Numbered from the stretch's first letter, positions 5,483 through 36,311 are shown. The stretch is DNA of 64,000 nucleotides from Escherichia coli (GCF_001677475.2 NZ_CP015229.1); one strand, 5' to 3'. Notes: generated by a model not told the origin, from the letters alone. A program made the numbers and translations.

Positions 5483-5583
5483 AGAATAATCAGGGATGAA
5501 GAAAATTATGCTTCCTGATTTATTAGTCTGATGTGTGAAAAAGAACCTGAGCTGAAAATAGCGCAGCAACTGGCACTCGAGTT

Positions 5584-8845
<3,262 letters not shown>

Positions 8846-8903
8846 ATTTGTGTAATTGCCTGATTTTGATATGTTCAATCCAGCATCAAATGAAGGTTAA
8901 TTT

Positions 8904-10101: not shown

Positions 10102-10181
10102 GAAAAGGCATTTACACAGAATCCTAAACAGGCTCTCCATTCCGGGAACGGCATCACCGCAAACTGCGCCGGAGGCAACCA

Positions 10182-10616: not shown

Positions 10617-10801
10617 ATCTCCTCCTTGTATCTTGACAATTGGTTAAAATAACTATGATTAGATTTGGCAAAGTGTATGTAGTCCGATCCCTCAAGGGAT
10701 TCATAGCCCGTAGCTCAGCGAATGGCGCATACACTGAGCCACTCATCTGAAACCCGAACAGTTGTCAGTACGCCATAACGCATTTGCAAGGATGGGTAAT
10801 C

Positions 10802-11549
<748 letters not shown>

Positions 11550-18873: not shown

Positions 18874-18956
18874 TTTCAGACATATATTATCTCCGTGAAT
18901 CCCCCGCCACCTTTCCGGTGTGCGGGGTTTTGTCTTTTTTCACCGGGAATACATGT

Positions 18957-19829: not shown

Positions 19830-19944
19830 ACACTCTGCCAGGGGAAATGCCTGATTACATTGCGTTAACCAACTGAAAACATGACACAAACACCTCATAC
19901 CCCTCCTGTTTCTCTTGCGTGGCCGCCTTGTTATTAATAGAATA

Positions 19945-19988
19945 AAACGATCGATAAAACAGGTATCGATCGTTACTATCGATCGTTT
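19945..19988. promoter_or_regulatory. Ag43 phase-variation switch (three GATC sites, OxyR-binding region)
   Basis: GATC at 19949-19952, 19968-19971 and 19981-19984 within AACGATCGATAAAACAGGTATCGATCGTTACTATCGATCG, about 220 bp upstream of the Ag43 start codon. Confidence 0.7.
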
Positions 19989-20201
19989 ATAGTGGTTAAT
20001 GGCCTGCGAAAAGGCAGCTGAATCTCTTCATCATGCAGAACGGAATTGCACACAACGGACTGATACTTCTCTGGCGGATGAGAGAGGGGAAGCATTTATG
20101 TCCGGGAAAAACCACTTTATCTGACCATGCTGTTTTGTACCTGCCGGTATCCACATTTGTGGGTACCGGCTTTTTTATTCACCCTCTGTAAGGAAAAGCT
20201 G

Positions 20202-23048
20202 ATGAAACGACATCTGAACACCAGCTACAGGCTGGTATGGAATCACATTACAGGCACCCTGGTGGTGGCTTCCGAACTGGCACGCTCACGGGGAAAAGGC
20301 GCCGGTGTGGCGGTTGCTCTGTCTCTTGCTGCTGTCACGTCAGTCCCGGCACTGGCTGCTGACACGGTTGTACAGGCGGGAGAAACCGTGAACGGCGGAA
20401 CACTGACAAATCATGACAACCAGATTGTCCTCGGTACGGCCAACGGAATGACCATCAGTACCGGTCTGGAGTATGGGCCGGATAACGAGGCCAATACCGG
20501 CGGGCAATGGATACAAAATGGCGGTATCGCCAACAACACTACTGTCACCGGTGGTGGTCTTCAGAGAGTGAATGCCGGAGGAAGCGTTTCAGACACGGTT
20601 ATCAGTGCCGGAGGCGGACAGAGCCTTCAGGGGCAGGCAGTGAACACCACTCTGAACGGCGGTGAGCAGTGGGTACATGAAGGCGGGATTGCAACGGGTA
20701 CCGTCATTAATGAGAAGGGCTGGCAGGCCGTCAAATCCGGCGCAATGGCAACCGACACGGTTGTGAATACCGGCGCGGAAGGGGGACCGGATGCAGAAAA
20801 TGGTGATACCGGGCAGTTTGTTCGCGGAAATGCCGTACGTACCACCATCAATAAAAATGGTCGTCAGATTGTGGCTGCTGAAGGAACGGCAAATACCACT
20901 GTGGTTTATGCCGGCGGCGACCAGACTGTACATGGTCACGCACTGGATACCACGCTGAATGGGGGGTACCTGTATGTGCACAACGGCGGTACGGCGTCTG
21001 GCACTGTTGTAAACAGTGACGGCTGGCAGATTATCAAGGAAGGTGGTCTGGCGGATTTCACCACCGTTAACCAGAAAGGCAAACTGCAGGTGAACGCCGG
21101 TGGTACAGCCACGAATGTCACCCTGACGCAGGGAGGCGCACTGGTCACCAGTACGGCGGCAACCGTCACCGGCAGCAACCGTCTGGGCAATTTCACTGTG
21201 GAAAACGGTAATGCTGACGGTGTTGTTCTGGAGTCCGGTGGTCGCCTGGATGTACTGGAGGGCCATTCAGCGCAGAAAACATTGGTGGATGACGGCGCTA
21301 TCCTGGCAGTGTCTGCCGGTGGTAAGGCAACAGATGTCACCATGACATCCGGTGGTGCCCTGATTGCAGACAGTGGTGCCACTGTTGAGGGGACCAATGC
21401 CAGCGGTAAGTTCAGTATTGATGGCATATCCGGTCAGGCCAGCGGCCTGCTGCTGGAAAATGGCGGCAGCTTTACGGTTAATGCCGGGGGACAGGCTGGC
21501 AACACCACTGTCGGACATCGTGGAACACTGACGCTGGCTGCCGGGGGAAGTCTGAGTGGAAGAACACAGCTCAGTAAAGGCGCCAGTATGGTACTGAATG
21601 GTGATGTGGTCAGTACCGGCGATATTGTTAACGCAGGAGAGATTCACTTTGATAATCAGACGACACAGGATGCCGTACTGAGCCGTGCTGTTGCAAAAGG
21701 CGACTCCCCGGTAACGTTCCATAAACTGACCACCAGTAACCTCACCGGTCAGGGTGGCACCATCAATATGCGTGTTCGCCTTGATGGCAGCAATGCCTCT
21801 GACCAGCTGGTGATTAATGGTGGTCAGGCAACCGGCAAAACCTGGCTTGCGTTTACAAATGTCGGAAACAGTAACCTCGGGGTGGCAACCTCCGGACAGG
21901 GTATCCGGGTTGTGGATGCACAGAATGGTGCCACCACAGAAGAAGGTGCGTTTGCCCTGAGTCGCCCGCTTCAGGCCGGCGCCTTTAACTACACCCTGAA
22001 CCGTGACAGCGATGAAGACTGGTACCTGCGCAGTGAAAATGCTTATCGTGCTGAAGTCCCCCTGTATGCCTCCATGCTGACACAGGCAATGGACTATGAC
22101 CGGATTCTGGCAGGCTCCCGCAGCCATCAGACTGGTGTAAGCGGTGAAAATAACAGCGTCCGTCTCAGCATTCAGGGCGGTCATCTCTGTCACGATAACA
22201 ACGGCGGTATTGCCCGTGGAGCCACGCCGGAAAGCAGCGGCAGCTATGGCTTCGTCCGTCTGGAGGGTGACCTGCTCAGAACAGAGGTTGCCGGTATGTC
22301 TCTGACGACAGGGGTGTATGGTGCTGCAGGCCATTCTTCCGTTGATGTTAAGGATGATGACGGCTCCCGTGCCGGCACGGTCCGGGATGATGCCGACAGT
22401 CTGGGCGGATACCTGAATCTGGTACACACGTCCTCCGGCCTGTGGGCTGACATTGTGGCACAGGGAACCCGCCACAGCATGAAAGCGTCATCGGACAATA
22501 ACGACTTCCGCGCCCGGGGCTGGGGCTGGCTGGGCTCACTGGAAACTGGTCTGCCCTTCAGTATCACTGACAACCTGATGCTGGAGCCACAACTGCAGTA
22601 CACCTGGCAGGGGCTCTCCCTGGATGACGGCCAGGATAACGCCGGTTATGTGAAGTTCGGGCATGGCAGTGCACAACATGTGCGTGCCGGCTTCCGTCTG
22701 GGCAGCCACAACGATATGACCTTTGGCGAAGGCACCTCATCCCGTGACACTCTGCGCGACAGTGCAAAACACCGTGTGAGTGAACTGCCGGTGAACTGGT
22801 GGGTACAGCCTTCTGTTATCCGCACTTTCAGCTCCCGGGGTGACATGAGCATGGGTACAGCCGCAGCCGGCAGTAACATGACGTTCTCACCCTCACAGAA
22901 TGGCACATCACTGGACCTGCAGGCCGGACTGGAAGCCCGTGTCCGGGAAAATATCACCCTGGGCGTTCAGGCCGGTTATGCCCACAGTGTCAGCGGCAAC
23001 AGCGCTGAAGGCTATAACGGTCAGGCCACGCTGAATGTGACCTTCTGA
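20202..23048 (+). CDS. flu: Antigen 43 self-associating autotransporter
   Basis: MKRHLNTSYRLVWNHITGTLVVASELARSRGKGAGVAVALSLAAVTSVPALAADTVV N-terminus, repetitive beta-helical passenger, C-terminal beta-barrel ending ...GYNGQATLNVTF; 948 aa from the ATG at 20202. Confidence 0.9.
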   Translation: MKRHLNTSYRLVWNHITGTLVVASELARSRGKGAGVAVALSLAAVTSVPALAADTVVQAGETVNGGTLTNHDNQIVLGTANGMTISTGLEYGPDNEANTGGQWIQNGGIANNTTVTGGGLQRVNAGGSVSDTVISAGGGQSLQGQAVNTTLNGGEQWVHEGGIATGTVINEKGWQAVKSGAMATDTVVNTGAEGGPDAENGDTGQFVRGNAVRTTINKNGRQIVAAEGTANTTVVYAGGDQTVHGHALDTTLNGGYLYVHNGGTASGTVVNSDGWQIIKEGGLADFTTVNQKGKLQVNAGGTATNVTLTQGGALVTSTAATVTGSNRLGNFTVENGNADGVVLESGGRLDVLEGHSAQKTLVDDGAILAVSAGGKATDVTMTSGGALIADSGATVEGTNASGKFSIDGISGQASGLLLENGGSFTVNAGGQAGNTTVGHRGTLTLAAGGSLSGRTQLSKGASMVLNGDVVSTGDIVNAGEIHFDNQTTQDAVLSRAVAKGDSPVTFHKLTTSNLTGQGGTINMRVRLDGSNASDQLVINGGQATGKTWLAFTNVGNSNLGVATSGQGIRVVDAQNGATTEEGAFALSRPLQAGAFNYTLNRDSDEDWYLRSENAYRAEVPLYASMLTQAMDYDRILAGSRSHQTGVSGENNSVRLSIQGGHLCHDNNGGIARGATPESSGSYGFVRLEGDLLRTEVAGMSLTTGVYGAAGHSSVDVKDDDGSRAGTVRDDADSLGGYLNLVHTSSGLWADIVAQGTRHSMKASSDNNDFRARGWGWLGSLETGLPFSITDNLMLEPQLQYTWQGLSLDDGQDNAGYVKFGHGSAQHVRAGFRLGSHNDMTFGEGTSSRDTLRDSAKHRVSELPVNWWVQPSVIRTFSSRGDMSMGTAAAGSNMTFSPSQNGTSLDLQAGLEARVRENITLGVQAGYAHSVSGNSAEGYNGQATLNVTF

Positions 23049-23168
23049 CAGAACCATCGCCTCTTTGTGGTCCCGGTCATCATGATCGGGACCCGGACCG
23101 GCGCAACGGATATTCAACGCCACATTCGCTGGCATTAACAATAACATGATATTCATCACGGAGTGACT

Positions 23169-25685
23169 ATGTTACAGATAGTCGGCGCGCTGATCCTGCT
23201 GATAGCAGGATTTGCCATTCTTCGCCTTTTGTTCAGAGCATTAATCAGCACGGCTTCTGTGCTGGCAGGGCTTATATTGCTGTGTCTGTTCGGCCCGGCC
23301 TTACTGGCTGGCTATATCACCGAACGCATAACACGGTTGTTCCATATTCGCTGGCTGGCAGGCGTATTTCTGACGATTGCCGGAATGATCATCAGCTTCA
23401 TGTGGGGACTTGATGGTAAACATATCGCGCTGGAGGCTCACACCTTTGACTCTGTGAAATTTATTCTGACCACCGCTCTCGCCGGTGGTCTGCTGGCTGT
23501 TCCCCTGCAGATCAAAAACATTCAGCAGAACGGGATCACACCAGAAGATATCAGCAAGGAAATTAACGGGTATTACTGCTGTTTTTATACTGCCTTTTTC
23601 CTTATGGCATGTTCTGCATGCGCACCATTGATCGCGTTACAGTACGATATTTCACCGTCACTGATGTGGTGGGGCGGGTTGTTGTACTGGCTGGCTGCAT
23701 TAGTGACGCTGCTATGGGCGGCCAGCCAAATCCAGGCGCTGAAAAAACTGACCTGTGCCATCAGCCAGACACTGGAAGAACAACCGGTGCTCAACAGTAA
23801 ATCGTGGCTGACCAGTTTGCAAAACGATTACAGCCTTCCTGACTCACTGACGGAGCGCATCTGGCTGACGCTCATTTCTCAACGGATTTCCCGGGGAGAG
23901 CTGAGGGAATTTGAACTGGCAGACGGAAACTGGTTACTGAACAATGCCTGGTATGAAAGAAACATGGCAGGTTTTAACGAACAGTTGAAAGAGAACCTGT
24001 CATTCACACCTGATGAACTGAAAACGCTCTTCCGGAACCGCCTGAATTTATCACCGGAAGCGAATGACGATTTTCTCGATCGTTGCCTGGACGGCGGTGA
24101 CTGGTATCCCTTTTCAGAAGGTCGCCGTTTTGTATCATTCCATCACGTGGATGAGCTTCGTATCTGTGCCTCCTGCGGGCTGACAGAAGTACATCATGCC
24201 CCGGAAAATCATAAGCCGGATCCGGAATGGTACTGCTCCTCTCTTTGTCGCGAAACAGAAACACTGTGTCAGGAAATTTATGAACGCCCTTACAACTGTT
24301 TTATTTCCGATGCAACGGCGAATGGTCTGATTCTCATGAAACTGCCGGAAACCTGGAGTACAAATGAGAAAATGTTTGCTTCCGGAGGGCAGGGACATGG
24401 GTTTGCCGCTGAACGGGGAAACCATATTGTCGACAGAGTCCGTCTGAAAAACGCACGGATCCTCGGTGATAATAATGCCAGAAATGGAGCAGACAGACTG
24501 GTCAGCGGAACAGAAATCCAGACGAAATATTGTTCAACTGCAGCCCGTAGCGTCGGTGCGGCATTCGACGGACAAAACGGACAGTATCGTTACATGGGAA
24601 ATAATGGCCCCATGCAACTGGAAGTCCCCCGTGATCAGTATGCCGGCGCTGTTGAAACCATGAGGAATAAGATCCGCGAAGGTAAAGTACCCGGTGTAAC
24701 CGATCCCGCAGAAGCGTCCCGGCTGATTCGTCGGGGACATCTGACTTATACTCAGGCCCGTAATATCACCCGGTTCGGGACCATCGAATCGGTCACTTAT
24801 GATATTGCCGAGGGTTCGGTTGTCAGTCTGGCGGCCGGAGGGATCAGTTTTGCACTGACGGCATCGGTCTTCTGGCTCAGCACCAGCGATCGCGATGCAG
24901 CCCTGCAGACAGCTGCTGTCCAGGCAGGAAAAACCTTCACCCGCACACTGGCTGTCTACATCACAACCCAGCAACTCCACCGGCTCAGTGTTGTTCAGGG
25001 TATGCTGAAGCACATTGATTTTTCGACTGCCAGCCCGACTGTCCGACTGGCTCTTCAGAAGGGGACCGGTGCAGGAAATATCAGTGCCCTGAACAAAGTA
25101 ATGAAGGGTACGCTGGTGACATCTCTGGCACTGGTAGCTGTCACAACCGGCCCTGACATGATCAAAATGTTGCGGGGACGGATCTCCGGTGCGCAGTTCA
25201 TCAGGAATCTTGCCGTGGCATCTTCCGGTGTGGCAGGTGGTGCTGTCGGGTCAGTGGCGGGCGGAATACTGTTCAGTCCACTGGGACCATTTGGTGCACT
25301 GACAGGGCGTGTGGTTGGCGGTGTTCTGGGGGGAATGATTGCCTCCGCTGTATCAGGAAAAATTGCCGGAGCGCTGGTTGAAGAAGATCGCGTCAAAATT
25401 CTGGCAATGATTCAGGAGCAGGTGACATGGCTTGCCGGCAGTTTCCTGCTGACCGGACATGAGATTGAAAATCTGAACGAGAATCTGGCCCGTGTTATCG
25501 ATCAGAATGCTCTGGAGATCATTTTCGCCGCCGGTATACAACAACGGGCCGCGACCAATATGTTAATCAAACCACTGGTGGTCAGTATCATCAGGCAACG
25601 CCCCGTCATGGAATATGATGCATCCCATCTCGGCAATATGGTTAACCGACTGGAAGAAGCATTACCCCCGGAGTTACCGGCATAA
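23169..25685 (+). CDS. YeeR-like inner-membrane protein (uncharacterised)
   Basis: About 838 aa; several N-terminal hydrophobic helices, central Cys cluster CASCGLTEVHH...YCSSLC, Gly-rich C-terminal helices (GVAGGAVGSVAGGILF...VVGGVLGGMIASAVSG); position right after flu as for yeeR. Confidence 0.5.
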   Translation: MLQIVGALILLIAGFAILRLLFRALISTASVLAGLILLCLFGPALLAGYITERITRLFHIRWLAGVFLTIAGMIISFMWGLDGKHIALEAHTFDSVKFILTTALAGGLLAVPLQIKNIQQNGITPEDISKEINGYYCCFYTAFFLMACSACAPLIALQYDISPSLMWWGGLLYWLAALVTLLWAASQIQALKKLTCAISQTLEEQPVLNSKSWLTSLQNDYSLPDSLTERIWLTLISQRISRGELREFELADGNWLLNNAWYERNMAGFNEQLKENLSFTPDELKTLFRNRLNLSPEANDDFLDRCLDGGDWYPFSEGRRFVSFHHVDELRICASCGLTEVHHAPENHKPDPEWYCSSLCRETETLCQEIYERPYNCFISDATANGLILMKLPETWSTNEKMFASGGQGHGFAAERGNHIVDRVRLKNARILGDNNARNGADRLVSGTEIQTKYCSTAARSVGAAFDGQNGQYRYMGNNGPMQLEVPRDQYAGAVETMRNKIREGKVPGVTDPAEASRLIRRGHLTYTQARNITRFGTIESVTYDIAEGSVVSLAAGGISFALTASVFWLSTSDRDAALQTAAVQAGKTFTRTLAVYITTQQLHRLSVVQGMLKHIDFSTASPTVRLALQKGTGAGNISALNKVMKGTLVTSLALVAVTTGPDMIKMLRGRISGAQFIRNLAVASSGVAGGAVGSVAGGILFSPLGPFGALTGRVVGGVLGGMIASAVSGKIAGALVEEDRVKILAMIQEQVTWLAGSFLLTGHEIENLNENLARVIDQNALEIIFAAGIQQRAATNMLIKPLVVSIIRQRPVMEYDASHLGNMVNRLEEALPPELPA

Positions 25686-25760
25686 CGGCTATTCTGCGCC
25701 TTTTACGTTTTATCACCTGATTTGTCAGTGTCATCGTCATGACTCAGAGAGGTAAATACC

Positions 25761-26216
25761 ATGATTCACCTGTTCAAAACCTGCATGATTACCGCCTTCA
25801 TTCTGGGGTTAACGTGGTCTGCCCCACTCCGGGCACAGGATCAACGTTACATCAGTATACGCAATACAGATACGATATGGCTCCCGGGAAATATTTGTGC
25901 TTACCAGTTCCGGCTGGATAATGGCGGAAACGATGAAGGATTTGGCCCCCTCACCATCACTCTGCAACTCAAAGACAAATATGGTCAGACGCTGGTGACC
26001 AGAAAAATGGAAACGGAAGCTTTTGGTGACAGTAATGCCACGCGAACCACAGACGCATTTCTGGAAACGGAGTGCGTGGAAAATATCGCCACAACCGAAA
26101 TCATTAAAGCAACTGAAGAAAGTAACGGCCATCGTGTCAGTCTGCCGTTATCGGTTTTCGATCCCCAGGACTACCATCCACTGCTAATTACCGTTTCCGG
26201 AAAAAACGTTAACTGA
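25761..26216 (+). CDS. Secreted hypothetical protein
   Basis: 151 aa with signal-peptide-like MIHLFKTCMITAFILGLTWSAPLRA; RBS AGAGAGG upstream. Confidence 0.45.
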   Translation: MIHLFKTCMITAFILGLTWSAPLRAQDQRYISIRNTDTIWLPGNICAYQFRLDNGGNDEGFGPLTITLQLKDKYGQTLVTRKMETEAFGDSNATRTTDAFLETECVENIATTEIIKATEESNGHRVSLPLSVFDPQDYHPLLITVSGKNVN

Positions 26217-26294
26217 TCCCTGAACTCAGTTTCATGCTTCAGCCTCTGTCACAACGCGTGGCAGAGGCTTTTTATTTATCAGGAGAAAACAGAT

Positions 26295-26528
26295 ATGCCG
26301 GGTTACACAGAGTATGTTCTGGCTGAAGGATCTTTCTCATACGGGCAGGCGGTTGCTGTCATAACAGCTTACCGCAATGTGTTTATCCAGAATGACCCGG
26401 GAATGCATTTCCGTTGGGTTATCCGCAACGCGGAAGGTCAGCGACGCTGGAGCTACCGGAATTCTGAACCCGATGCCGGAAAGGTGCTTAATACGCAGCT
26501 CGCCAGTGACGGTCTTCTCAGACAATAA
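26295..26528 (+). CDS. DUF905-type small protein (YkfF-like)
   Basis: 77 aa [30 protein letters not shown]...; AGGAG RBS; typical member of this island module as recalled. Confidence 0.5.
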
Positions 26529-26627
26529 ACGTCATTCATTTCACCCATCAGGCCGCGTCTTCTCCGGGAGACGTGGCTTTTTCATTTATTACACCAGTAA
26601 ATCTTAACCACCGATAAGGAGCAAATT

Positions 26628-27446
26628 ATGCGACTAGCCAGTCGTTTTGGTTATGCGAACCAGATACGCCGTGACCGTCCGCTGACACACGAAGAACTGA
26701 TGCACTATGTTCCCGGTATTTTCGGTGAAGACCGGCATACTTCCCGCAGTAAACGATATGCGTACATTCCCACTATCACCGTACTGGAAAGCCTGCAGCA
26801 GGAAGGTTTTCAGCCATTCTTCGCCTGCCAGACCCGCGTGCGCGACCCGGGCCGCCGGGGATACACCAAACACATGCTGCGTCTGCGCCGTGACGGGGAG
26901 ATAAACGGACAACATGTCCCTGAAATCATCCTGCTGAACTCCCATGACGGTACCTCCAGCTACCAGATGCTGCCGGGTTACTTCAGGTTCGTCTGCCAGA
27001 ACGGATGCGTCTGTGGTCAGTCTCTGGGGGAAGTGCGTGTTCCACACCGGGGAAATGTAGTGGAGAAAGTTATCGAAGGGGCTTACGAGGTGGTGGGCGT
27101 GTTTGACCGGATAGAGGAGAAGCGTGATGCCATGCAGTCTCTGGTTCTGCCGCCACCGGCACGCCAGGCGCTGGCACAGGCGGCACTGACTTACCGTTAT
27201 GGTGACGAACATCAGCCGGTCACCACCGCTGACATTCTGACACCACGACGCAGGGAGGATTACGGTAAGGACCTGTGGAGCGCATATCAGACCATCCAGG
27301 AGAATATGCTGAAAGGCGGAATTTCCGGTCGCAGTGCCAGAGGAAAACGTATCCACACCCGTGCCATTCACAGCATCGACACGGACATTAAGCTCAATCG
27401 CGCATTGTGGGTGATGGCAGAAACACTGCTGAAGAGTATGCGCTGA
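26628..27446 (+). CDS. DUF932-type protein (YafZ/YfjQ-like)
   Basis: 272 aa; family resemblance to YafZ/YfjQ from cryptic-prophage modules, from memory. Confidence 0.55.
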   Translation: MRLASRFGYANQIRRDRPLTHEELMHYVPGIFGEDRHTSRSKRYAYIPTITVLESLQQEGFQPFFACQTRVRDPGRRGYTKHMLRLRRDGEINGQHVPEIILLNSHDGTSSYQMLPGYFRFVCQNGCVCGQSLGEVRVPHRGNVVEKVIEGAYEVVGVFDRIEEKRDAMQSLVLPPPARQALAQAALTYRYGDEHQPVTTADILTPRRREDYGKDLWSAYQTIQENMLKGGISGRSARGKRIHTRAIHSIDTDIKLNRALWVMAETLLKSMR

Positions 27447-27536
27447 TGCCTTTTCCCTGAAAGCGCAGTTCTGACTCATGTCCGTCCCTGCCCCGCGACT
27501 TCTTCCATTCATTTACTTTTTATAAGGAATAATCTC

Positions 27537-28022
27537 ATGACAACCGTTTCGCATAATTCCACCACACCTTCTGTTTCCGTAACCGCTGTATCAGAGAATA
27601 ACCCGCCTCAACTGGTTGCCACCCTCGTCCCTGATGAACAGCGCATCAGCTTCTGGCCGCAGCACTTTGGCCTCATTCCACAGTGGGTGACCCTGGAGCC
27701 CCGTGTCTTCGGCTGGATGGACCGTCTGTGCGAAGACTACTGCGGTGGTATCTGGAATCTGTACACCCTGAACAACGGCGGGGCATTTATGGCACCCGAA
27801 CCGGATGACGATGATGACGAAGCATGGGTACTGTTCAATGCCATGAACGGTAACCGCGCTGAAATGAGCCCGGAAGCCGCCGGCATTGCTGCCTGTCTGA
27901 TGACGTACAGTCATCATGCCTGTCGTACGGAGAATTATGCCATGACAGTTCATTATTACCGGCTGCGGGATTACGCCCTGCAGCATCCGGAATGCAGCGC
28001 CATTATGCGCATCATCGACTGA
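27537..28022 (+). CDS. Antirestriction protein (KlcA/ArdB-like; YfjX/YafX type)
   Basis: 161 aa with acidic stretch PEPDDDDDEAW and conserved position immediately upstream of the RadC-like gene. Confidence 0.6.
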   Translation: MTTVSHNSTTPSVSVTAVSENNPPQLVATLVPDEQRISFWPQHFGLIPQWVTLEPRVFGWMDRLCEDYCGGIWNLYTLNNGGAFMAPEPDDDDDEAWVLFNAMNGNRAEMSPEAAGIAACLMTYSHHACRTENYAMTVHYYRLRDYALQHPECSAIMRIID

Positions 28023-28037
28023 ATGGAGGCAGGGACA

Positions 28038-28514
28038 ATGCAGCAGCTTTCCTTTCTGCCCGGAGAGATGACGCCCGGCGAGCGCAGTCTCATTCTGCGG
28101 GCCCTGAAAACCCTGGACCGCCATCTTCATGAACCCGGCGTGGCCTTCACCTCCACCCGTGCAGCACGGGAATGGCTGATTCTGAACATGGCGGGACTGG
28201 AGCGTGAAGAGTTCCGGGTGCTGTATCTGAACAACCAGAATCAGCTGATTGCCGGTGAAACCCTCTTCACCGGCACCATCAACCGCACGGAAGTCCATCC
28301 CCAGGAAGTGATTAAACGCGCCCTGTATCACAATGCCGCTGCTGTGGTGCTGGCACACAATCACCCGTCCGGTGAAGTCACCCCCAGCAAGGCAGACCGC
28401 CTTATCACGGAACGTCTGGTACAGGCACTGGGCCTGGTGGATATCCGGGTGCCGGACCATCTGATAGTCGGTGGCAGCCAGGTTTTCTCCTTTGCCGAAC
28501 ACGGTCTGCTTTAA
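28038..28514 (+). CDS. RadC-like JAB/MPN-domain protein (YeeS/YfjY/YkfG type)
   Basis: JAMM-like motif HNHPSGEVTPSKAD; GGAGG RBS 8 nt upstream of the ATG at 28038. Confidence 0.7.
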   Translation: MQQLSFLPGEMTPGERSLILRALKTLDRHLHEPGVAFTSTRAAREWLILNMAGLEREEFRVLYLNNQNQLIAGETLFTGTINRTEVHPQEVIKRALYHNAAAVVLAHNHPSGEVTPSKADRLITERLVQALGLVDIRVPDHLIVGGSQVFSFAEHGLL

Positions 28515-28582
28515 CCCGTCACCGTCACAACTACATCACACTTGTTTTCACTTTTATCTTCTGTCTTCAGAGGTATCCCATC

Positions 28583-28804
28583 ATGAAAATTATCACCCGT
28601 GGTGAAGCCATGCGTATTCACCAACAGCATCCTGCATCCCGTCTTTTTCCGTTCTGTACCGGTAAGTACCGCTGGCACGGCAGCGCTGAAGCGTATACCG
28701 GTCGTGAAGTGCAGGATATTCCCGGCGTTCTTGCCGTGTTTGCTGAACGCCGTAAGGACAGTTTTGGCCCGTATGTCCGGCTGATGAGCGTCACCCTGAA
28801 CTAA
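28583..28804 (+). CDS. DUF987 protein (YeeT-like)
   Basis: 73 aa; position between the RadC-like and antitoxin genes as in CP4-44. Confidence 0.6.
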   Translation: MKIITRGEAMRIHQQHPASRLFPFCTGKYRWHGSAEAYTGREVQDIPGVLAVFAERRKDSFGPYVRLMSVTLN

Positions 28805-28882
28805 GTCAGGAAGGGCATTCTGATGAGCCGAATTATCGCCACCATTGAACTATTCTTAACTGATTTCTGTGAGGACTTTATC

Positions 28883-29251
28883 GTGTCAGACACACTGCCC
28901 GGGACAACGCATCCCGACAACAACAACGACCGCCCCTGGTGGGGGCTACCCTGCACCGTGACGCCCTGTTTCGGTGCACGTCTGGTGCAGGAGGGTAACC
29001 GGTTGCATTACCTTGCAGACCGCGCCGGTATCAGAGGCCGGTTCAGCGACGCGGATTCGTACCACCTGGACCAGGCCTTTCCGCTGCTGATGAAACAACT
29101 GGAGCTCATGCTCACCAGCGGTGAACTGAATCCCCGCCATCAGCATACCGTGACACTGTATGCGAAGGGGCTGACCTGCGAAGCCGACACCTTCGGCTCC
29201 TGTGATTACGTTTATCTGGCTGTTTATCCGACGCCCGAAACGAAAAAGTAA
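28883..29251 (+). CDS. cbeA: CbeA (YeeU)-type antitoxin of a type IV toxin-antitoxin pair
   Basis: 122 aa from GTG at 28883: [51 protein letters not shown]...; directly upstream of the CbtA-like gene. Confidence 0.75.
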
Positions 29252-29340
29252 ACCACCGGAATAACCCTCTGCTCCGGCCTGGTGTTTTCACCACGCCACT
29301 GTCCCATTTTTTATCTCTGCATATCAGGAAAATCTTCAGT

Positions 29341-29715
29341 ATGAAAACATTACCCGACACGCATGTACGGGAGGCATCGAGCTGCCCGTCTCCCGTCACC
29401 ATCTGGCAGACACTGCTCACCCGGTTACTGGACCAGCATTACAGCCTTACGCTGAATGACACACCGTTCGCGGATGAACGTGTGATTGAGCAGCATATTG
29501 AGGCAGGCATTTCACTGTGTGATGCGGTGAATTTTCTCGTGGAAAAATACGCGCTGGTGCGTACCGACCAGCCGGGATTCAACACTTGTCCCCGCTCTCA
29601 GTTAATAAACAGTATTGATATCCTCCGGGCTCGCCGGGCGACCGGCCTGATGACCCGCGACAATTACAGAACAGTAAATAACATTACCCTTGGTAAGCAT
29701 CCGGAGAAACGATGA
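29341..29715 (+). CDS. cbtA: CbtA (YeeV)-type toxin (cytoskeleton-targeting)
   Basis: 124 aa [70 protein letters not shown]...; classic CbtA family sequence. Confidence 0.8.
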
Positions 29716-30200
29716 AACTGGCCCTGATGCTGGAAGCCGACAGCATTAATGTGCAGGCACTGAACATGGGGCGAATTGTCGTTGACGTCGATGGTGTTAA
29801 TCTCACTGAACTGATTAACAAGGTCGCTGAAAACGGTTATTCACTCCGCGTGGTGGAGGAATCCGACCAACAGTCAACCTGCACACTACCACCGTTTGCA
29901 ACCCTTGCCGGCATACGCTGCAGTACCGCACATATCACGGAAAAGGATAACGCCTGGCTGTACTCGCTGTCACACCAGACCAGTGACTTCGGTGAATCAG
30001 AATGGATTCATTTCACAGGTAGCGGATATCTGTTACGTACCGATGCGTGGTCATATCCGGTTCTGCGGCTTAAACGCCTGGGGCTGTCAAAAACGTTCCG
30101 TCGTCTGGTTGTCACACTCATCCAACGTTATGGCGTCAGTCTCATTCATCTGGATGCCAGCGCTGAATGTCTGCCGGACCTGCCCACTTTCGACTGGTAA
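29712..30200 (+). CDS. YeeW-like hypothetical protein
   Basis: 162 aa; start overlaps cbtA stop; GGAG RBS. Confidence 0.45.
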
Positions 30201-30211
30201 CCAGGAACAAC

Positions 30212-30409
30212 ATGAAATCATTAACCACGGAAACCGCACTGGATATTCTGATTGCGTGGCTACAGGACAATATCGACTGCGAATCGGGAATTATCTTTGA
30301 CAACGATGAGGATAGAACGGATTCGGCAGCACTGTTGCCCTGTATCGAACAGGCCAGAGAGGATGTCCGTACCCTGCGTCAGCTGCAGTTTCTGCAACAG
30401 AACCGGTGA
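30212..30409 (+). CDS. Small hypothetical protein
   Basis: 65 aa from ATG at 30212 with AGGA upstream; followed by a terminator hairpin. Confidence 0.35.
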   Translation: MKSLTTETALDILIAWLQDNIDCESGIIFDNDEDRTDSAALLPCIEQAREDVRTLRQLQFLQQNR

Positions 30410-30438
30410 GTCTTACTCACCAGACTTCATTCCACTGA

Positions 30439-30470
30439 CGCCAGCCTGAATACGGCTGGCGTTTTCGTTT
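30439..30470 (+). terminator. Rho-independent terminator-like hairpin
   Basis: CGCCAGCC-tgaatac-GGCTGGCG followed by TTTTCGTTT. Confidence 0.5.
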
Positions 30471-30493
30471 ATCTGCAAAAAGGAATATCGATT

Positions 30494-31336
30494 ATGTCTG
30501 AAATCACAGCCTCTCGTCCGGAAGTGGTCAACGGGCATACGGACGTTATCTGCTCAACCAGTATCCGCCACATTCTGGCTGTACGAAAGAGTACATTGCT
30601 GCAAATCGACACACTTATCCGACAACTGGCTGAAATATCAGCAATGACAGAAAGTATTAGAGGTAAAACGGCTCTGGACTGGGCCATGAAACAGGATTTT
30701 CGCTGCGGTTGCTGGCTGATGGAGAAACCGGAAACCACAATGAAAGCCATCACACGCAATCTTGATCGCGAACTCTGGCGTGATCTGATGCAACGTTCCG
30801 GGATGCTGAGTCTGATGGATGCGCAGACCCGGGACACATGGTACAGGTCACTGGAATATGATAATTTTCCGGAAATCAGCGAAGCGAACATTCTGAGCAC
30901 ATTTGAACAACTGCACCAGAACAAAGATGAAGTGTTTGAACGGGGAGTGATCAACGTCTTCAAAGGGCTGAGCTGGGATTACAAAACCAACTCACCCTGT
31001 AAATTTGGCAGTAAAATTATCGTCAACAATCTGGTGAGGTGGGACCAGTGGGGATTTCATCTTATCAGTGGAATGCAGGCAGATCGCCTGGCTGACCTGG
31101 AAAGAATGTTGCATCTGCTCAGAGGAAAACCGATCCCCGACAACCGGGGGAATATCACCATTAATCTGGATGACCACATACAGTCCGTTCAGGGTAAAGG
31201 ACGCTATGAAGATGAGATGTTCATCATTAAATACTTTAAGAAGGGATCTGCACACATCACTTTCAAAAGGCTGGAGCTGATTGACAGAATTAACGATATA
31301 ATAGCCAGGCACTTTCCTTCTGTGCTCTCAGCCTGA
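30494..31336 (+). CDS. DUF4942-like hypothetical protein at the island terminus
   Basis: 280 aa; AGGA RBS; last gene before the tRNA-Phe-derived junction; family call from memory. Confidence 0.45.
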   Translation: MSEITASRPEVVNGHTDVICSTSIRHILAVRKSTLLQIDTLIRQLAEISAMTESIRGKTALDWAMKQDFRCGCWLMEKPETTMKAITRNLDRELWRDLMQRSGMLSLMDAQTRDTWYRSLEYDNFPEISEANILSTFEQLHQNKDEVFERGVINVFKGLSWDYKTNSPCKFGSKIIVNNLVRWDQWGFHLISGMQADRLADLERMLHLLRGKPIPDNRGNITINLDDHIQSVQGKGRYEDEMFIIKYFKKGSAHITFKRLELIDRINDIIARHFPSVLSA

Positions 31337-31446
31337 CCCCGAGTTTGATTCCCTTTCGATATCAAAAGGGACTGCGGGTACAAAAGAGGGTACATCTTTC
31401 ACCAAACCAAACAAAATAAACTAATATCAACATGATAGAAGCATTC

Positions 31447-31468
31447 TTCGATTCCGAGTCCGGCACCA
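31447..31468 (+). repeat. Remnant of tRNA-Phe 3' end (T-arm, acceptor stem, CCA): island attR-type direct repeat
   Basis: TTCGATTCCGAGTCCGGCACCA matches the 3' end of E. coli tRNA-Phe except for one missing G in the acceptor stem (from memory); no upstream D or anticodon arm, so not a complete tRNA. Confidence 0.6.
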
Positions 31469-31482
31469 CTAATTCTTAAGAA

Positions 31483-31504
31483 CCCGCCCACAAGGCGGGT
31501 TTTT
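31483..31504 (+). terminator. Rho-independent terminator
   Basis: CCCGCC-cacaa-GGCGGG followed by TTTTT, immediately after the tRNA-derived repeat. Confidence 0.55.
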
Positions 31505-31560
31505 GCTTTTGGATCTGACAATAACCTTCACGAAAAAAATTAGCTTATAAAGTCTGGGGG

Positions 31561-31598
31561 AATTACTCTCGCCACGTTAACGAGAGTAATTTTATTGA
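31561..31598 (+). terminator. Strong hairpin (11-bp perfect stem) with T-rich tail
   Basis: AATTACTCTCG-ccacgttaa-CGAGAGTAATT then TTATTGAT; lies between the island junction and the gspM stop. Confidence 0.4.
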
Positions 31599-31615
31599 TA
31601 TTAATCTCCTGATAC

Positions 31616-32152
31616 TTACCCCCCTCCAAATTCCAGCCGCTGCACATTCACCATCCCTGGCTTCTCACCTACGCTGACATCAATTTGTGTCACCCGCAGC
31701 GCATATTTTTCATCCAGTGCGTTTAACCATTTCAGCAGGTCATTAAACACCACAGGTTCTATCCAGACCTGAATATTCTCCCCACGCTCGGCTATCCGCT
31801 TGATGACCACCGAGTGCGCGGAAGCACTGTCACTGATGACCCGCGATACCTGCGCAGGCGTTGTTGTGGCAGATTTTCGCGCTGCAATAATATCCGGCGC
31901 GGCGCTCTTCAGTCGCGCGTTCATCGCCACCAGCTGCTGCAACATCGTCTCCTGTTGTTCTATCCGTTCGCTCAACGGCTGCCAGATGAGGACGCAATAT
32001 CCGGCGCTAAACAGGAACACCACCGCTGCCAGTAACATGCCCTTTTCACGCGGAGAACGCCCCGCCAGGTGTTGTGTCAGCCAGTGTTCGCCACGGCTTA
32101 ACTGGCGTTCACGCCATTGCTGAAAATAGTGAATAAATTTATCGCGTAACAT
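31616..32152 (-). CDS. gspM: Type II secretion system protein M
   Basis: 178 aa, single N-terminal TM helix; last gene of the gsp operon. Confidence 0.75.
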   Translation of the reverse strand: MLRDKFIHYFQQWRERQLSRGEHWLTQHLAGRSPREKGMLLAAVVFLFSAGYCVLIWQPLSERIEQQETMLQQLVAMNARLKSAAPDIIAARKSATTTPAQVSRVISDSASAHSVVIKRIAERGENIQVWIEPVVFNDLLKWLNALDEKYALRVTQIDVSVGEKPGMVNVQRLEFGGG

Positions 32153-32156
32153 GTTA

Positions 32157-33332
32157 TTACCTCCGCAACGTTACGCCGCCGGAAACCGCATCACCCTCTT
32201 TCTGTAACGCGTCCTGTTGCACAACATAATCTGCCGCCAGTGCGCTACGCAGTTTGTCGAAACTGGCAAAGTTCGCGGCCCGCAACTGAAGGTGGAGCGT
32301 CTGGCGTTTTTGATCAAAGGTGAAACCACGCATTTCGATGTCGGAAAGTGATGCTGATTTCAGGGTGCTGGCTATCGCTGACAACTCAGCGAGCAGCCGG
32401 GTATCGTCGGCCTGTGGGCGATATTTTTTCAGCGCCATCGTCACCTGAGAGCGTAAATTCACAATCCGCTTCTGCTCCGGGAATAGCGTTAAGAACTGTT
32501 TCTCCGCCTGGGTGCGGCTTTGCGCCACCTGTTCGCTGACGCTCCATAACGTCACGCCCCGTTCCACTACCAGCGCAACCAGAATCAGCAATATCGGCAG
32601 AATCATCACCCGCCAGCGCGCCCACTGTTTTCGGTAGCTGACGCGAGGCTGCCACTGGCCGCTTAGCAAGTTCCCTTCTGGTTCTCCGAATGTGGTAATG
32701 GCTGGCAGTGCCGTGATTGTCAGGCGTTCTGCGTCCGCATCAGCCCATGTAGATAGCTCTTCCGGCGCAATACCGACCACGGTCAACGAAAGCGGTAAAT
32801 CCTGCTCATTGAGCTGTGCGCGTAACATGACCGGAGCCAGCGCCCGCCCGGCGCTCCATCCCCGGCACTCATTGATGCGGCAGATAACTCGTTGCGCATC
32901 GCCAGCCATATAGCCACAAGGAATGGACATCCAGTCCGGCGCGACGGTAGCGCGGGTGATGCCGTTTTCCTGCAACCACTGCGCAATGTTGCGCATATGC
33001 TGCTGGTGAATCACTGCCACGGTTGCCAGTTGCTGGTCGATTTTCAACGGCGCAAAATGCAGTTCGTCGATATCCTGGTTCAGTTCTTCTTCCAGTAAGG
33101 CGGGCAGAATAGTGGGTATCTCCTTACGGAGGACATCAGGCAGTTCAACCTGCCAGACGCTGATCCATTCGCCGGGAATGTAGAGTCGAATCGCATCGGT
33201 TTGCAGCCATTGCTGAAGCTGTTCGTTGTCGACGTCAGGCCAGATACCGCACTCCACGTCGGCGGTACGGCGCTGCCAGCGGATGGGGTCGGTGGCGCAA
33301 AGCGGGAAAAAAATCTCAAGCATGGAACTCAC
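32157..33332 (-). CDS. gspL: Type II secretion system protein L
   Basis: 391 aa; operon position between gspK and gspM. Confidence 0.75.
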   Translation of the reverse strand: MSSMLEIFFPLCATDPIRWQRRTADVECGIWPDVDNEQLQQWLQTDAIRLYIPGEWISVWQVELPDVLRKEIPTILPALLEEELNQDIDELHFAPLKIDQQLATVAVIHQQHMRNIAQWLQENGITRATVAPDWMSIPCGYMAGDAQRVICRINECRGWSAGRALAPVMLRAQLNEQDLPLSLTVVGIAPEELSTWADADAERLTITALPAITTFGEPEGNLLSGQWQPRVSYRKQWARWRVMILPILLILVALVVERGVTLWSVSEQVAQSRTQAEKQFLTLFPEQKRIVNLRSQVTMALKKYRPQADDTRLLAELSAIASTLKSASLSDIEMRGFTFDQKRQTLHLQLRAANFASFDKLRSALAADYVVQQDALQKEGDAVSGGVTLRR

Positions 33333-34306
33333 TCACTTTCTCCTGTCTGATGCCAGAGAACCGAAAAGTGTTGTGGCCCCATGCGGACAATTAACGAGTT
33401 CATCGTCAGTTCAATCTCATTCACGGTGATATCCGAACGCAGCCAGAAGTAATTGCTGTCCACGCTCAGGACGGTTTTTAGCTGTTTTTTAGTACGCTCA
33501 TCGACGTCAGCAAGTAGCGGCTGCGCAAGAAACTGATCGACATCTTCCCACCCCTTCGCCGGACGTTGTTGTAATAACGCCCGCGCCTGAACAGGGCTTA
33601 ACCACGGGTCAAACAGTGCTTCAAGAATCACACTTTGCGCAACGTCCAGGGTATTGATGTTGATTTGCTGGCGGGTCATCGGCAGCGCACAGACCAGCGG
33701 TTTCAGTTTTTGATAAAGCCCGGCGTCCATTCCCTGCACCACTCGCATCTCGCTGATATCAGCTAACGGTTGATTAGCGGCGTAGAACGGCACCGAGCGG
33801 GCGAGATACTCGCTGTCTTCACGCCCCAGACGCGTCTGCACGCTGCGGTCTTCATCAATAAACTCCCACAGGCTTTCGGCTATCAGTTCGGCCCGATAAG
33901 CAGGCACATCCAGGCGCGAGATCAGGGCAATCAGTTGTTGTACCGCGATAGGACGCGACGCCGTCGTCGGCTGAGCGAGGGCATTCAGGTTAAAGCAGGC
34001 CTGTGCGTCGCGCAGGGTGACGGCAATTTGCCCCTGCGGCAGTGGGAAGAAACGAGGGCCGGATGCCCACGGCTGTGCCAGATGCACGCGTTGTTCATTT
34101 TTCAGGCTCAGACTGAGTGCGCTCAACGCCAGGCTTTCTGCACTGGCGCTGTACCACAGCGCCTGCTGGTACTCCTGCTGGCTGCGCGTTCGCCCAAGTT
34201 GTTGCTGCATCCGCCCGGAAAGCGTGATGGTTACCAGCATCATAACCGCCAGCAATATCAGCACCACAACCAGTGCCATTCCGCGTTTTGGTGGTGAGGT
34301 GATCAT
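33329..34306 (-). CDS. gspK: Type II secretion minor pseudopilin K
   Basis: 325 aa with N-terminal hydrophobic helix; overlaps gspJ stop. Confidence 0.75.
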   Translation of the reverse strand: MITSPPKRGMALVVVLILLAVMMLVTITLSGRMQQQLGRTRSQQEYQQALWYSASAESLALSALSLSLKNEQRVHLAQPWASGPRFFPLPQGQIAVTLRDAQACFNLNALAQPTTASRPIAVQQLIALISRLDVPAYRAELIAESLWEFIDEDRSVQTRLGREDSEYLARSVPFYAANQPLADISEMRVVQGMDAGLYQKLKPLVCALPMTRQQININTLDVAQSVILEALFDPWLSPVQARALLQQRPAKGWEDVDQFLAQPLLADVDERTKKQLKTVLSVDSNYFWLRSDITVNEIELTMNSLIVRMGPQHFSVLWHQTGESE

Positions 34307-34908
34307 GATAATTGCGGCCCGCGTAACAACCAGATGCGTTCAATCTCGCCCCATTGCGGCGAATGCAGAGTCATGCGCACTGCCACAGGGATCGCCTGCA
34401 CTGATGACCAGCTCTCCTGCCAGCGCGTGCCGTCGTAGAACTGCAAACGGAGCGAATCTGCCGGGATTAATTTTTGCGTTGTTGGCTTCACGCTGCCTGC
34501 TGCATCGGTCAGCGGCCAGGCTAACCGTTCGAGATAACCGTCATGAATGCGGTAACCAACGGTGAGCAGATTACTGCGCGGCAGGCGCATCAACGGATTA
34601 ACCACACCGCCACGCACAAAGCGCATCCCTTCACTCTCAGACGCCAGCACGCCAGCGCCAGCCAGTAACGCCGGTTCCCGCTGGCCCTGATCGCCTCTTA
34701 CCGGGCGTGGCATCATTTGTGTCAGATCGTGGGTCAGAAAACTCATCGTTTGCTGCATGAGGTTTAGTTTTTGATCGTGTCCGGCGACGGCGCTATTCAC
34801 GCGCGTGACGCCGTTTGTCACCTGCTGCGCCATCAGCGCCAGTGAGGCAAAAATGGCGATTGCCACCAGCATTTCCAGTAACGTTAAACCAGCGTGGGTC
34901 CTTTTCAC
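34303..34908 (-). CDS. gspJ: Type II secretion minor pseudopilin J
   Basis: Prepilin-type N-terminus MKRTHAGLTLLEMLVAIA. Confidence 0.8.
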   Translation of the reverse strand: MKRTHAGLTLLEMLVAIAIFASLALMAQQVTNGVTRVNSAVAGHDQKLNLMQQTMSFLTHDLTQMMPRPVRGDQGQREPALLAGAGVLASESEGMRFVRGGVVNPLMRLPRSNLLTVGYRIHDGYLERLAWPLTDAAGSVKPTTQKLIPADSLRLQFYDGTRWQESWSSVQAIPVAVRMTLHSPQWGEIERIWLLRGPQLS

Positions 34909-35276
34909 TGTTGGCCTCCCACGGCGCTAAACCAGGCGCGTCGTGACTGAATCACCGGCGAAAAATCTTCGTGACGGCTGACTTCAATATCCACCGCCTG
35001 GAGCAGCGCGTTACCGGTATTCAGCGGTGTGGTTCGCCAGTACCAGCGGCTTCCTGCCATATCGCTCTCGCCCTGGTGCCTGACCGCCCGTTGTTCGCGG
35101 GTCATCAGGTAGAGTAGAGCGGTCTGGTTTTCAGCTACCCAGCCCGCTACTGTTTTCTCCTCAAGAACTTGCTGATTACTCAGCGCACCGCTGGCAATCT
35201 GTAACACTGCCGTGGCAGCCAGCGCAAAAATCGCCAGCGCGAGCATCACTTCCAGCAACGTAAATCCGCGCTTCAT
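34905..35276 (-). CDS. gspI: Type II secretion minor pseudopilin I
   Basis: Prepilin-type N-terminus MKRGFTLLEVMLALAIF. Confidence 0.8.
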   Translation of the reverse strand: MKRGFTLLEVMLALAIFALAATAVLQIASGALSNQQVLEEKTVAGWVAENQTALLYLMTREQRAVRHQGESDMAGSRWYWRTTPLNTGNALLQAVDIEVSRHEDFSPVIQSRRAWFSAVGGQQ

Positions 35277-35836
35277 GGCATCCTCTCATCACATTGATTG
35301 AGGGATAACGCGCCATCGTGCGCCAGTTTTACCGCCCAACATGCGTTTTGCACCGCCGAGTAAAAGCGCAGCGTAAACGGCGTGGCGGGTTCAAAAGGCG
35401 AAAAACGGATCTGCGGCGTCTTCTTTTTCGCCTCTTTTTGCAGCTCCAGTTCAATATCATGCAGCGTCAGGCGACGACGTTGCAGCTCCAGCGCATACTC
35501 TTTCTGCCAGATATCACTTCCGGGTTGTAACAGCATCTGCACCTGTTTCGACACCGTAACCTGTGCCGATAACCGGGTCGCAGAAACGGGCAACCACTGC
35601 CCCTGACGACGTTGCATAAACTGGTAGCCAGGTGGGTCGATTAGCACACCGAGTGTTTTCCCTTCGATCACTGCCCTGTCCTTAAACTGCGCAAAGCGAG
35701 TCAGAAAATCCTGCGCCGCTTTTTTCGCAGGCGATTCAGAATCGGTCGCAAAAGTCTGTACCACGCCCACACTGGCAAGGCCGATAAGGAAAATCACCAG
35801 CATGATTTCCAGAAGAGTGAATCCGCGTCCAGGCAC
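35273..35836 (-). CDS. gspH: Type II secretion minor pseudopilin H
   Basis: Prepilin-type N-terminus GRGFTLLEIMLVIF. Confidence 0.8.
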   Translation of the reverse strand: MPGRGFTLLEIMLVIFLIGLASVGVVQTFATDSESPAKKAAQDFLTRFAQFKDRAVIEGKTLGVLIDPPGYQFMQRRQGQWLPVSATRLSAQVTVSKQVQMLLQPGSDIWQKEYALELQRRRLTLHDIELELQKEAKKKTPQIRFSPFEPATPFTLRFYSAVQNACWAVKLAHDGALSLNQCDERMP

Positions 35837-35839
35837 TGA

Positions 35840-36295
35840 TTACTGAAACTCCTGCAAATTCCAGTTACCGATATCTGCGCCAGCGCCTTCCCCGTTTTCC
35901 TGACCATCCGCCCCTAAGGTGTAAACATCAAACATCCCTTTTTCGCCAGGGCTGAGATACTGATAATCATTGCCCCACGGATCTTTTGGCAGTCGTTTAA
36001 TGTATCCACCGGTACGGTAGTTGCGGGAATCCGCCATATTGGCCGGTTGCTGGATCAGCGCTTCCAGCCCCTGTTCGGTGGTCGGATAACGCCCGTTATC
36101 CAGTCGGTACATATCCAGCGCGTTCTCCAGCGCCACGATATCGCTGATGGCTTTTTGCCGATCCGCTTTCTCTTTATTGCCCAACAGGTTAGGCACCACC
36201 AGACTTGCCAGGACGCCAAGAATAACAATCACCACCATCACTTCCAGCAGGGTAAAACCTGCCCGTGGTTTTTGTGTGCGGGATAACGAATTCAT
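35840..36295 (-). CDS. gspG: Type II secretion major pseudopilin G
   Basis: MNSLSRTQKPRAGFTLLEVMVVIVILGVLASLVVPNLLGNKEKADRQKA; GGAG RBS 7 nt upstream of the ATG at 36295. Confidence 0.85.
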   Translation of the reverse strand: MNSLSRTQKPRAGFTLLEVMVVIVILGVLASLVVPNLLGNKEKADRQKAISDIVALENALDMYRLDNGRYPTTEQGLEALIQQPANMADSRNYRTGGYIKRLPKDPWGNDYQYLSPGEKGMFDVYTLGADGQENGEGAGADIGNWNLQEFQ

Positions 36296-36311
36296 GTGAT
36301 AACTCCGTAAA

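Follow-up and report, generated by a model that had tools for sequence, protein, structure and literature searches.

Within a 64,000-nucleotide (nt) stretch of Escherichia coli DNA (NZ_CP015229.1; hereafter the window), ten plus-strand genes spanning positions 26295 to 31336 form a block that carries a CbeA/CbtA (YeeU/YeeV) type IV toxin–antitoxin (TA) pair, along with genes of the DUF905, DUF932, ArdB/KlcA, RadC-like, DUF987/YeeT, DUF5983, and DUF4942 families and a DUF957-like gene. We read it as the conserved distal block of an island integrated at pheV and belonging to the P4-like "CP4" cryptic prophage family; as the intact version of the block known from K-12 CP4-44; and as one in which the role of the TA pair is most likely not addiction. 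We give this reading a probability of about 0.85.

The ten genes were delineated with an open reading frame (ORF) listing and a Pfam scan of the window (Table 1). A sequence-only reading made beforehand had named eight of them, in this order on the plus strand and within 26295 to 30200, and had described all the ORFs as intact. The ORF listing and full-profile Pfam matches confirm the eight names and their order, and there are no frameshifts or internal stops. The module itself runs on past 30200, however, with a DUF957-like ORF and a DUF4942 gene carrying it to 31336. Because each Pfam match spans essentially the entire profile, none of these genes is truncated, and all ten are preceded by a Shine–Dalgarno-like sequence. 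The exact proteins encoded by the block are deposited as GenBank ANO90856 to ANO90865.

The DUF4942 gene ends 110 bp before a remnant of the transfer RNA (tRNA) gene pheV. Aligned to the K-12 pheV–yghD region, the window becomes homologous at the 3′ end of the tRNA and stays nearly identical from there, across the pheV terminator hairpin and on into yghD/gspM. Because the 22-nt pheV remnant adjoins the block and the flank beyond it is collinear with K-12, the block is the distal end of an island integrated at pheV, the left end of which lies beyond the window start; no intact tRNA was found in the 64-kb window. The tRNA 3′-end repeat at the junction, together with synteny to CP4-44, identifies a CP4-type tRNA-integrated island.

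Table 1. Features of the ten-gene block, the island junction, and the genes immediately upstream (aa, amino acids; E, E-value)
Feature	Coordinates	Strand	Length and evidence
DUF905 family gene	26295–26528	+	77 aa; PF06006, E 1.9e-15, profile 2–68 of 70; exact protein ANO90856.1 in NCBI
DUF932 gene	26628–27446	+	272 aa; PF06067, E 2.5e-52, profile 2–227 of 227
ArdB/KlcA-family antirestriction gene	27537–28022	+	161 aa; PF03230, E 4.7e-37, profile 1–92 of 92
RadC-like JAB-domain gene	28038–28514	+	158 aa; PF04002, E 1.2e-43, profile 2–121 of 121
DUF987/YeeT gene	28583–28804	+	73 aa; PF06174, E 5.4e-40, profile 1–65 of 65
cbeA (yeeU), type IV antitoxin	28883–29251	+	122 aa; PF06154, E 3.9e-53, profile 1–100 of 101
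cbtA (yeeV), toxin	29341–29715	+	124 aa; PF06755, E 1.4e-61, profile 1–112 of 112; exact protein ANO90862.1
DUF5983 gene (YeeW-like, "Aec77"), full length	29712–30200	+	162 aa; N- and C-terminal Pfam domains, E 1.5e-29 and 9.3e-22
DUF957-like small ORF	30212–30409	+	65 aa; 100% identical to WP_001374283.1 (PGAP: "DUF957 domain-containing protein")
DUF4942 gene	30494–31336	+	280 aa; PF13708, E 1.7e-66; last gene of the island
Island right junction (attR-type repeat)	31448–31469	+	final 22 nt of pheV (tRNA-Phe), lacking one G
pheV terminator hairpin	31477–31505		K-12 pheV–yghD alignment; followed by yghD/gspM
YeeR-like gene, full length	23163–25685	+	840 aa; 99.6% over 507 aa to K-12 YeeR (blastp)
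IrmA family gene	25761–26216	+	PF18673, E 1.6e-37

Comparison with the CP4 elements of K-12

The nearest K-12 relative of the block is CP4-44, with ~91% nt identity from yeeS to yeeW. Its yeeR-yeeS-yeeT-cbeA-cbtA-yeeW genes have the order and orientation found in the window, and a yeeP-like GTPase gene, an IsrC-type small RNA (sRNA), Ag43/flu, and yeeR lie upstream in both. Protein identities to the window copy are 98% for YeeS, 98.6% for YeeT, 92% for CbeA, and 86% for CbtA (blastp). CP4-44 nevertheless lacks a 3.37-kb equivalent of window positions 24690 to 28061; the alignment jumps from 24689 to 28062 (K-12 locus L002, 10300–10303), and CP4-44 is therefore a deletion derivative. Gone with this segment are the 3′ third of yeeR, irmA, the DUF905, DUF932, and antirestriction genes, and the first yeeS codons. 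K-12 YeeR thus comprises the 5′ 510 of 840 codons, and the deletion fuses the truncated yeeR directly to yeeS. K-12 YeeW is likewise a 64-aa stump, compared with the 162-aa DUF5983 protein here. The two elements also differ in location, CP4-44 occupying another chromosomal site whereas the present island is at pheV. Judged from these alignments, the block is the undeleted, fully intact version of the CP4-44 block.

Two other K-12 elements, CP4-57 (yfjQ ... lfgA/yfjX-lfgB/yfjY-ypjJ-yfjZ-ypjF) and CP4-6 (yafZ ... ykfF-yafX-ykfG-ykfH-yafW-ykfI), hold the families in matching order from the antirestriction gene to the toxin, but at merely 69 to 76% nt and 60 to 81% aa identity to this block, and in both several other genes split DUF932 from the antirestriction gene. 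DUF905 is represented in CP4-6, by ykfF immediately 5′ of the antirestriction gene, but not in CP4-57. Toxins (109–113 aa) and antitoxins (105 aa) of these elements are shorter than those here, and DUF5983, DUF957, and DUF4942 genes are not annotated in them. The full gene order of the window is present in no single K-12 element. The resemblance to a K-12 CP4-44/CP4-57 module asserted by the sequence-only reading consequently stands in substance, subject to the deletion in the former and to the divergence and interrupted order of CP4-57 and CP4-6.

Products encoded by the block

The DUF905 gene, 43% identical in aa sequence to K-12 YkfF (blastp), is bracketed by terminator-like hairpins at 26241–26269 and 26550–26579, and the DUF932 product is 73 to 74% identical to YfjQ and YafZ (blastp). 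The antirestriction protein is 74% identical to K-12 LfgA/YfjX (blastp). Its complete domain and its matches to ArdB and KlcA structures predict membership in the ArdB/KlcA antirestriction family (PF03230). "KlcA-like," as it had been called, is accurate at the family level, but the closest solved structure is E. coli ArdB (2WJ9, E 6.4e-97) rather than KlcA (2KMG, E 1.3e-20). As do its characterized homologs, this ArdB-type protein would counter type I restriction.

The RadC-like protein is also 70% identical to LfgB/YfjY of CP4-57 and matches PDB 2QLC (E 1.3e-24). The HNHPSGE motif cited earlier is indeed present, encoded at 28356–28376, and from nt 28356 the metal-binding JAMM signature H-x-H-x7-S-x2-D is intact (AHNHPSGEVTPSKAD). 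The RadC JAB domain and this signature place the protein among RadC-like JAB/JAMM proteins (PF04002). Such a protein would be a metal-dependent hydrolase, and the CP4-57 paralog LfgB has been reported as a protease. Two starts are available, 28038 (158 aa) and an ATG at 28023 (163 aa); the former is more likely, as the Prokaryotic Genome Annotation Pipeline (PGAP) uses the 158-aa form in related copies. Two starts are also available to cbeA, GTG 28883 (122 aa, as annotated in K-12) and an in-frame ATG at 28823 (142 aa), each preceded by a Shine–Dalgarno-like sequence. CbeA matches the YeeU structure 2H28 with E 5.6e-78.

Scans with other collections added little. Among the block proteins, the RadC-like protein alone received a name from NCBIfam; the DUF957-like ORF had no match in the current copy of Pfam, even at E up to 1; and no Rfam family was found within the module. 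With PADLOC, none of the ten proteins matched a known or candidate anti-phage defense model, even at E up to 0.01, and a literature search on CbtA and phage defense returned general reviews only. We therefore dropped an anti-phage defense interpretation.

Predicted activity of CbtA and CbeA

The pair has the hallmarks of the CbtA/CbeA (YeeV/YeeU) type IV family: a full-length CbtA_toxin domain (PF06755), a CbeA_antitoxin gene directly upstream on the same strand and 89 nt from cbtA, and F65. This residue, which CbtA, YkfI, and YpjF need to bind FtsZ (Heller et al., PMC5624674), is invariant in our alignment and occurs in 11/11 copies examined. Because the ORFs are full length, the ratio of nonsynonymous to synonymous substitution rates (dN/dS) is low, and F65 is kept, the genes likely encode a working FtsZ-directed toxin and a CbeA-type antitoxin, which makes the earlier prediction of a functional pair a reasonable one. 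By analogy with the K-12 homologs, CbtA would bind FtsZ directly and thereby block cell division. CbeA would not bind the toxin but would counter it by attaching to filaments of FtsZ and MreB and bundling them, as is characteristic of type IV systems (PMC5624674, PMC5371832).

CbtA might also act through MreB to block elongation, although this is uncertain here, where position 15 (codon 29383–29385) is Cys; K-12 CbtA has Arg. The substitution R15C in K-12 CbtA abolished MreB binding (PMC5624674). YpjF and YkfI, the toxins of CP4-57 and CP4-6, share C15 and F65 with the window copy and are dual cytoskeletal inhibitors; YpjF still binds MreB, and C15R is without effect in either (PMC5624674). 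The nine other non-K-12 CbtA copies that we examined (loci L001, L006, L007, L009–L012, L014, and L015) all have C15 and F65. Because C15 is found in every sampled non-K-12 copy as well as in YpjF and YkfI, it is the R15 of K-12 that is the unusual state. We considered C15 as a marker of lost MreB targeting and rejected this as a firm conclusion, C15 being the common natural state and compatible with MreB binding in YpjF.

Transcription unit and the genes downstream of cbtA

From DUF932 to the DUF957-like ORF, the genes are closely spaced or overlapping and plus-strand hairpins are only weak. The lack of a strong terminator-like hairpin in this interval suggests a single transcription unit. 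A terminator-like hairpin follows the DUF957-like ORF (30437–30463). A sigma-70 consensus scan of the block returned promoter-like sites less often than in shuffled sequence, none of them usefully placed, so the proposed operon structure rests on the spacing and the missing strong hairpins.

The DUF5983 start shares 4 nt (ATGA) with the cbtA stop, an arrangement consistent with translational coupling, and the DUF957-like ORF begins 11 nt past the DUF5983 end; both genes are under purifying selection. On this basis, CbeA/CbtA could be part of a larger unit, in which the DUF5983 and DUF957-like proteins might act as modulators of CbtA; alternatively, the block in its entirety might serve as an entry cassette shared with conjugative elements and not as an addiction module. 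We regard this proposal as doubtful at present. For DUF5983, structure modeling gave a confident prediction of the C-terminal domain, for which no fold relative was detected in the PDB. K-12, the source of all experiments, has the truncated YeeW only.

A 2026 preprint (10.64898/2026.06.09.728211) proposed that an AntiFam entry beside DUF5983 and cbtA may represent a genuine protein and raised a frameshift idea for a neighboring AntiFam entry. The DUF957-like ORF at 30212–30409 is a candidate for AntiFam ANF00264, a correspondence that is not confirmed. We considered a programmed frameshift from DUF5983 into the DUF957-like ORF and set it aside; the 34-nt frame overlap (30167–30200) has no canonical slippery heptamer. 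Independent initiation is simpler, because the ORF has its own Shine–Dalgarno sequence and ATG.

Distribution, selection, and decay

The block is an ordinary one: already known, ubiquitous in E. coli, and routinely annotated. Matches to the 5.3-kb block were found in 5317 of 5426 complete RefSeq E. coli genomes (~98%), at a median of three places per genome. The cbeA–cbtA segment occurs in 4928 of these genomes, with a median of three copies and a maximum of 14. In all, the complete genomes hold roughly 13,500 copies. Copies with the identical ten-gene block abutting yghD/gspM, and with identical PGAP product names, share 91 to 95% nt identity with the window. The best identity to the block in the entire set is ~95%. 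The backbone right of the island, 31500–36500 (yghD/gspM to gspF), reaches at best ~96% in the same set. Because neither the block nor this gsp flank exceeds these values, the window lineage is not represented among the 5426 genomes; the source is a divergent Escherichia lineage or a genome outside the set.

In pairwise comparisons of this copy with others, dN/dS was 0.03 to 0.42 for nine of the ten genes, including 0.03 to 0.05 for yeeT, 0.14 to 0.25 for cbeA, 0.09 to 0.24 for cbtA, and 0.13 to 0.42 for the DUF957-like ORF (six other copies). The DUF905 value, 0.77, rests on seven substitutions and is uninformative, and one near-identical DUF5983 pair gave 0.65 on three substitutions. By this measure, purifying selection is clear for nine of the ten genes. 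Synonymous divergence (dS) against a single E. coli copy (L001; window 26200–31500) varied about tenfold among neighboring genes, from 0.04 for DUF905, the antirestriction gene, and DUF5983 to 0.29 for DUF932 and 0.44 for cbtA. Because neighbors differ so widely against one comparison copy, these values indicate a mosaic history and recombination between module copies.

Integrity was scored from the PGAP annotation of 12 copies, a small and non-random sample. Both cbeA and cbtA were intact in eight; cbtA was frameshifted in two (loci L008 and L013); and the remaining two, from E. coli AH50 (L007, 2909–3275) and 20A24 (L009, 2893–3259), combined an intact cbtA with a frameshifted cbeA (the coordinates given). 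DUF5983 was truncated or interrupted in 4/12.

Role of the block

The sequence-only reading had proposed that the TA pair could stabilize the island. As an addiction module, the pair would act through a toxin that outlasts its antitoxin, so that cells losing the island would be killed or arrested. Here neither gene is disrupted and both evolve under purifying selection, the pair lies at most 2.2 kb from the attachment-site end of the island, a position like that noted for the K-12 pairs (PMC5371832), and TA systems do stabilize other integrative elements (examples cited in PMC12548467 and PMC5371832). What is established for the K-12 homologs points the other way. In the three K-12 pairs, neither toxin nor antitoxin autoregulates the operon, transcription is low, and deletion of the antitoxin genes is possible; in addition, YfjZ neutralizes the non-cognate toxin YkfI (Wen et al., PMC5371832). 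Moreover, CbeA acts on FtsZ and MreB, not on the toxin, and protects also from unrelated FtsZ inhibitors (PMC5624674); because of this mode of action, another genomic copy could cover the loss of this one, and E. coli genomes have a median of three. The AH50 and 20A24 copies, which keep cbtA with a broken cbeA in viable strains, show that natural strains can do without the cognate antitoxin. An addiction module would not be expected to tolerate antitoxin loss beside an intact toxin gene, and by the proxy of these copies and of K-12, this family appears to do so. In the literature searched, stabilization of an island or prophage by the CbeA/CbtA family is not reported. We therefore regard the stabilization proposal as unsupported and speculative, and in part contradicted; that the pair is an addiction module appears very unlikely, and its role is most likely something other than classical post-segregational addiction.

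The block looks more like an entry and maintenance gene set common to conjugative elements, and it is now present in several copies per genome. One form of this idea is that it is an establishment and anti-defense cassette from conjugative elements, which would be switched on when the element enters a new cell: ArdB would blunt restriction, the RadC-like protein would process nucleic acid, and CbtA with CbeA would transiently delay division, the TA behavior seen on overexpression being a by-product. A division delay by CbtA during establishment was suggested by Iyer et al. Conjugative plasmids share the DUF932, RadC-like JAB, ArdB/KlcA, DUF4942, and DUF5983 families with the block, in clusters whose genes lie on one strand. 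DUF932 has ~67% nt identity to yubP/DUF932 in at least 5000 plasmid records (4330 conjugative among the matches listed), and yubP is located in the leading region of F-type plasmids (ssb-psiA-mok-yubP-yubQ-traM). On a pOXA-48-like IncL/M conjugative plasmid, JAB/RadC-like, DUF4942, and antirestriction genes share one orientation and lie no more than 7 kb apart. A distant DUF5983 homolog on a 28.7-kb contig (L017, 852–1421) adjoins DUF932 directly 5′ of NikA-like, relaxase, and coupling-protein genes, so that in both the F-type plasmid and this contig the cluster adjoins transfer genes. Four further distant DUF5983 homologs lie on contigs too short to reveal their gene context. The module is, in addition, essentially absent from phage genomes: one match, unannotated and 3.2 kb long, was found in 50,697 phage records. 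For this reason, "cryptic prophage," the term applied to the module by the sequence-only reading, is a historical label. However, the plasmid similarity is ~67 to 75% nt or at the protein level only, and is gene by gene, with no conserved order in common. Plasmids carry other TA systems, for example hok/mok; CbtA/CbeA occurs on very few of them, and several of the 16 plasmid records holding most of the module are multi-megabase and chromosome-sized. The part of the island within the window has no transfer genes, consisting mainly of insertion sequences, Ag43, and YeeR. We consider such a cassette possible, and put it forward tentatively.

Alternatively, the block could be a domesticated or slowly decaying remnant with minor host effects, such as oxidative-stress tolerance, its high copy number reflecting hitch-hiking with tRNA-integrating islands and gene conversion between copies. 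Deletion of all three K-12 toxin genes raised hydrogen peroxide sensitivity (PMC5371832, as cited in PMC5624674), and LfgB, the RadC paralog of CP4-57, is reported to be protective in oxidative stress (PMC10846083). Pseudogenes are frequent among the sampled copies, in the TA pair and in DUF5983, and the spread of dS between neighboring genes fits a mosaic past. Purifying selection on nine of ten genes argues against neutrality, however, and this copy has no lesion at all; we judge the remnant explanation unlikely.

Several observations weigh against the reading that we favor, an intact CP4-44-type block with a working TA pair that serves some purpose other than addiction. CbtA is only 86% identical to K-12 CbtA, from which it differs in its first 16 residues, position 15 among them, and the literature searched yields no experiment on this cbtA/cbeA allele. 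The consensus scan found no credible promoter 5′ of DUF932 or cbeA, and the K-12 homologs of cbeA and cbtA show low transcription (PMC5371832). Finally, one or the other gene is broken in 4/12 sampled copies; individual copies do decay.

Other features of the window

Upstream of the block and of the YeeR-like and IrmA family genes (Table 1), positions 18918–23048 contain a yeeP-like GTPase gene, then an RF00124 match (IS102, IsrC-type sRNA; 19947–20183), then a 973-aa ORF for an Ag43-type autotransporter, an arrangement that matches yeeP-isrC-flu in CP4-44. Farther upstream, still inside the island, 2217–11281 is a dense insertion-sequence (IS) cluster with two IS21-type istA/istB pairs on opposite strands, an ISL3 fragment, an IS3-type element, an IS256/Mutator-family transposase, and an IS110-family fragment. 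In the chromosomal flank, the C0719 sRNA family (RF00117) is matched over its full length at 50377–50598 (283 bits).

Implications

As a discovery, the block carries little weight, being common and with its proteins already in GenBank; together with the pheV remnant, it serves as a landmark showing where in the window the island ends on the right. Three small points may interest specialists. CP4-44 of K-12, the experimental reference for this family, is a deleted derivative, and neither R15 in its CbtA nor its shortened YeeW is typical of the natural copies that we sampled. The occurrence in nature of copies that combine a broken cbeA with an intact cbtA speaks against simple addiction. The gene-by-gene kinship with conjugative plasmids, in part beside transfer genes, suggests a testable alternative, namely that the block may have a role in element establishment.

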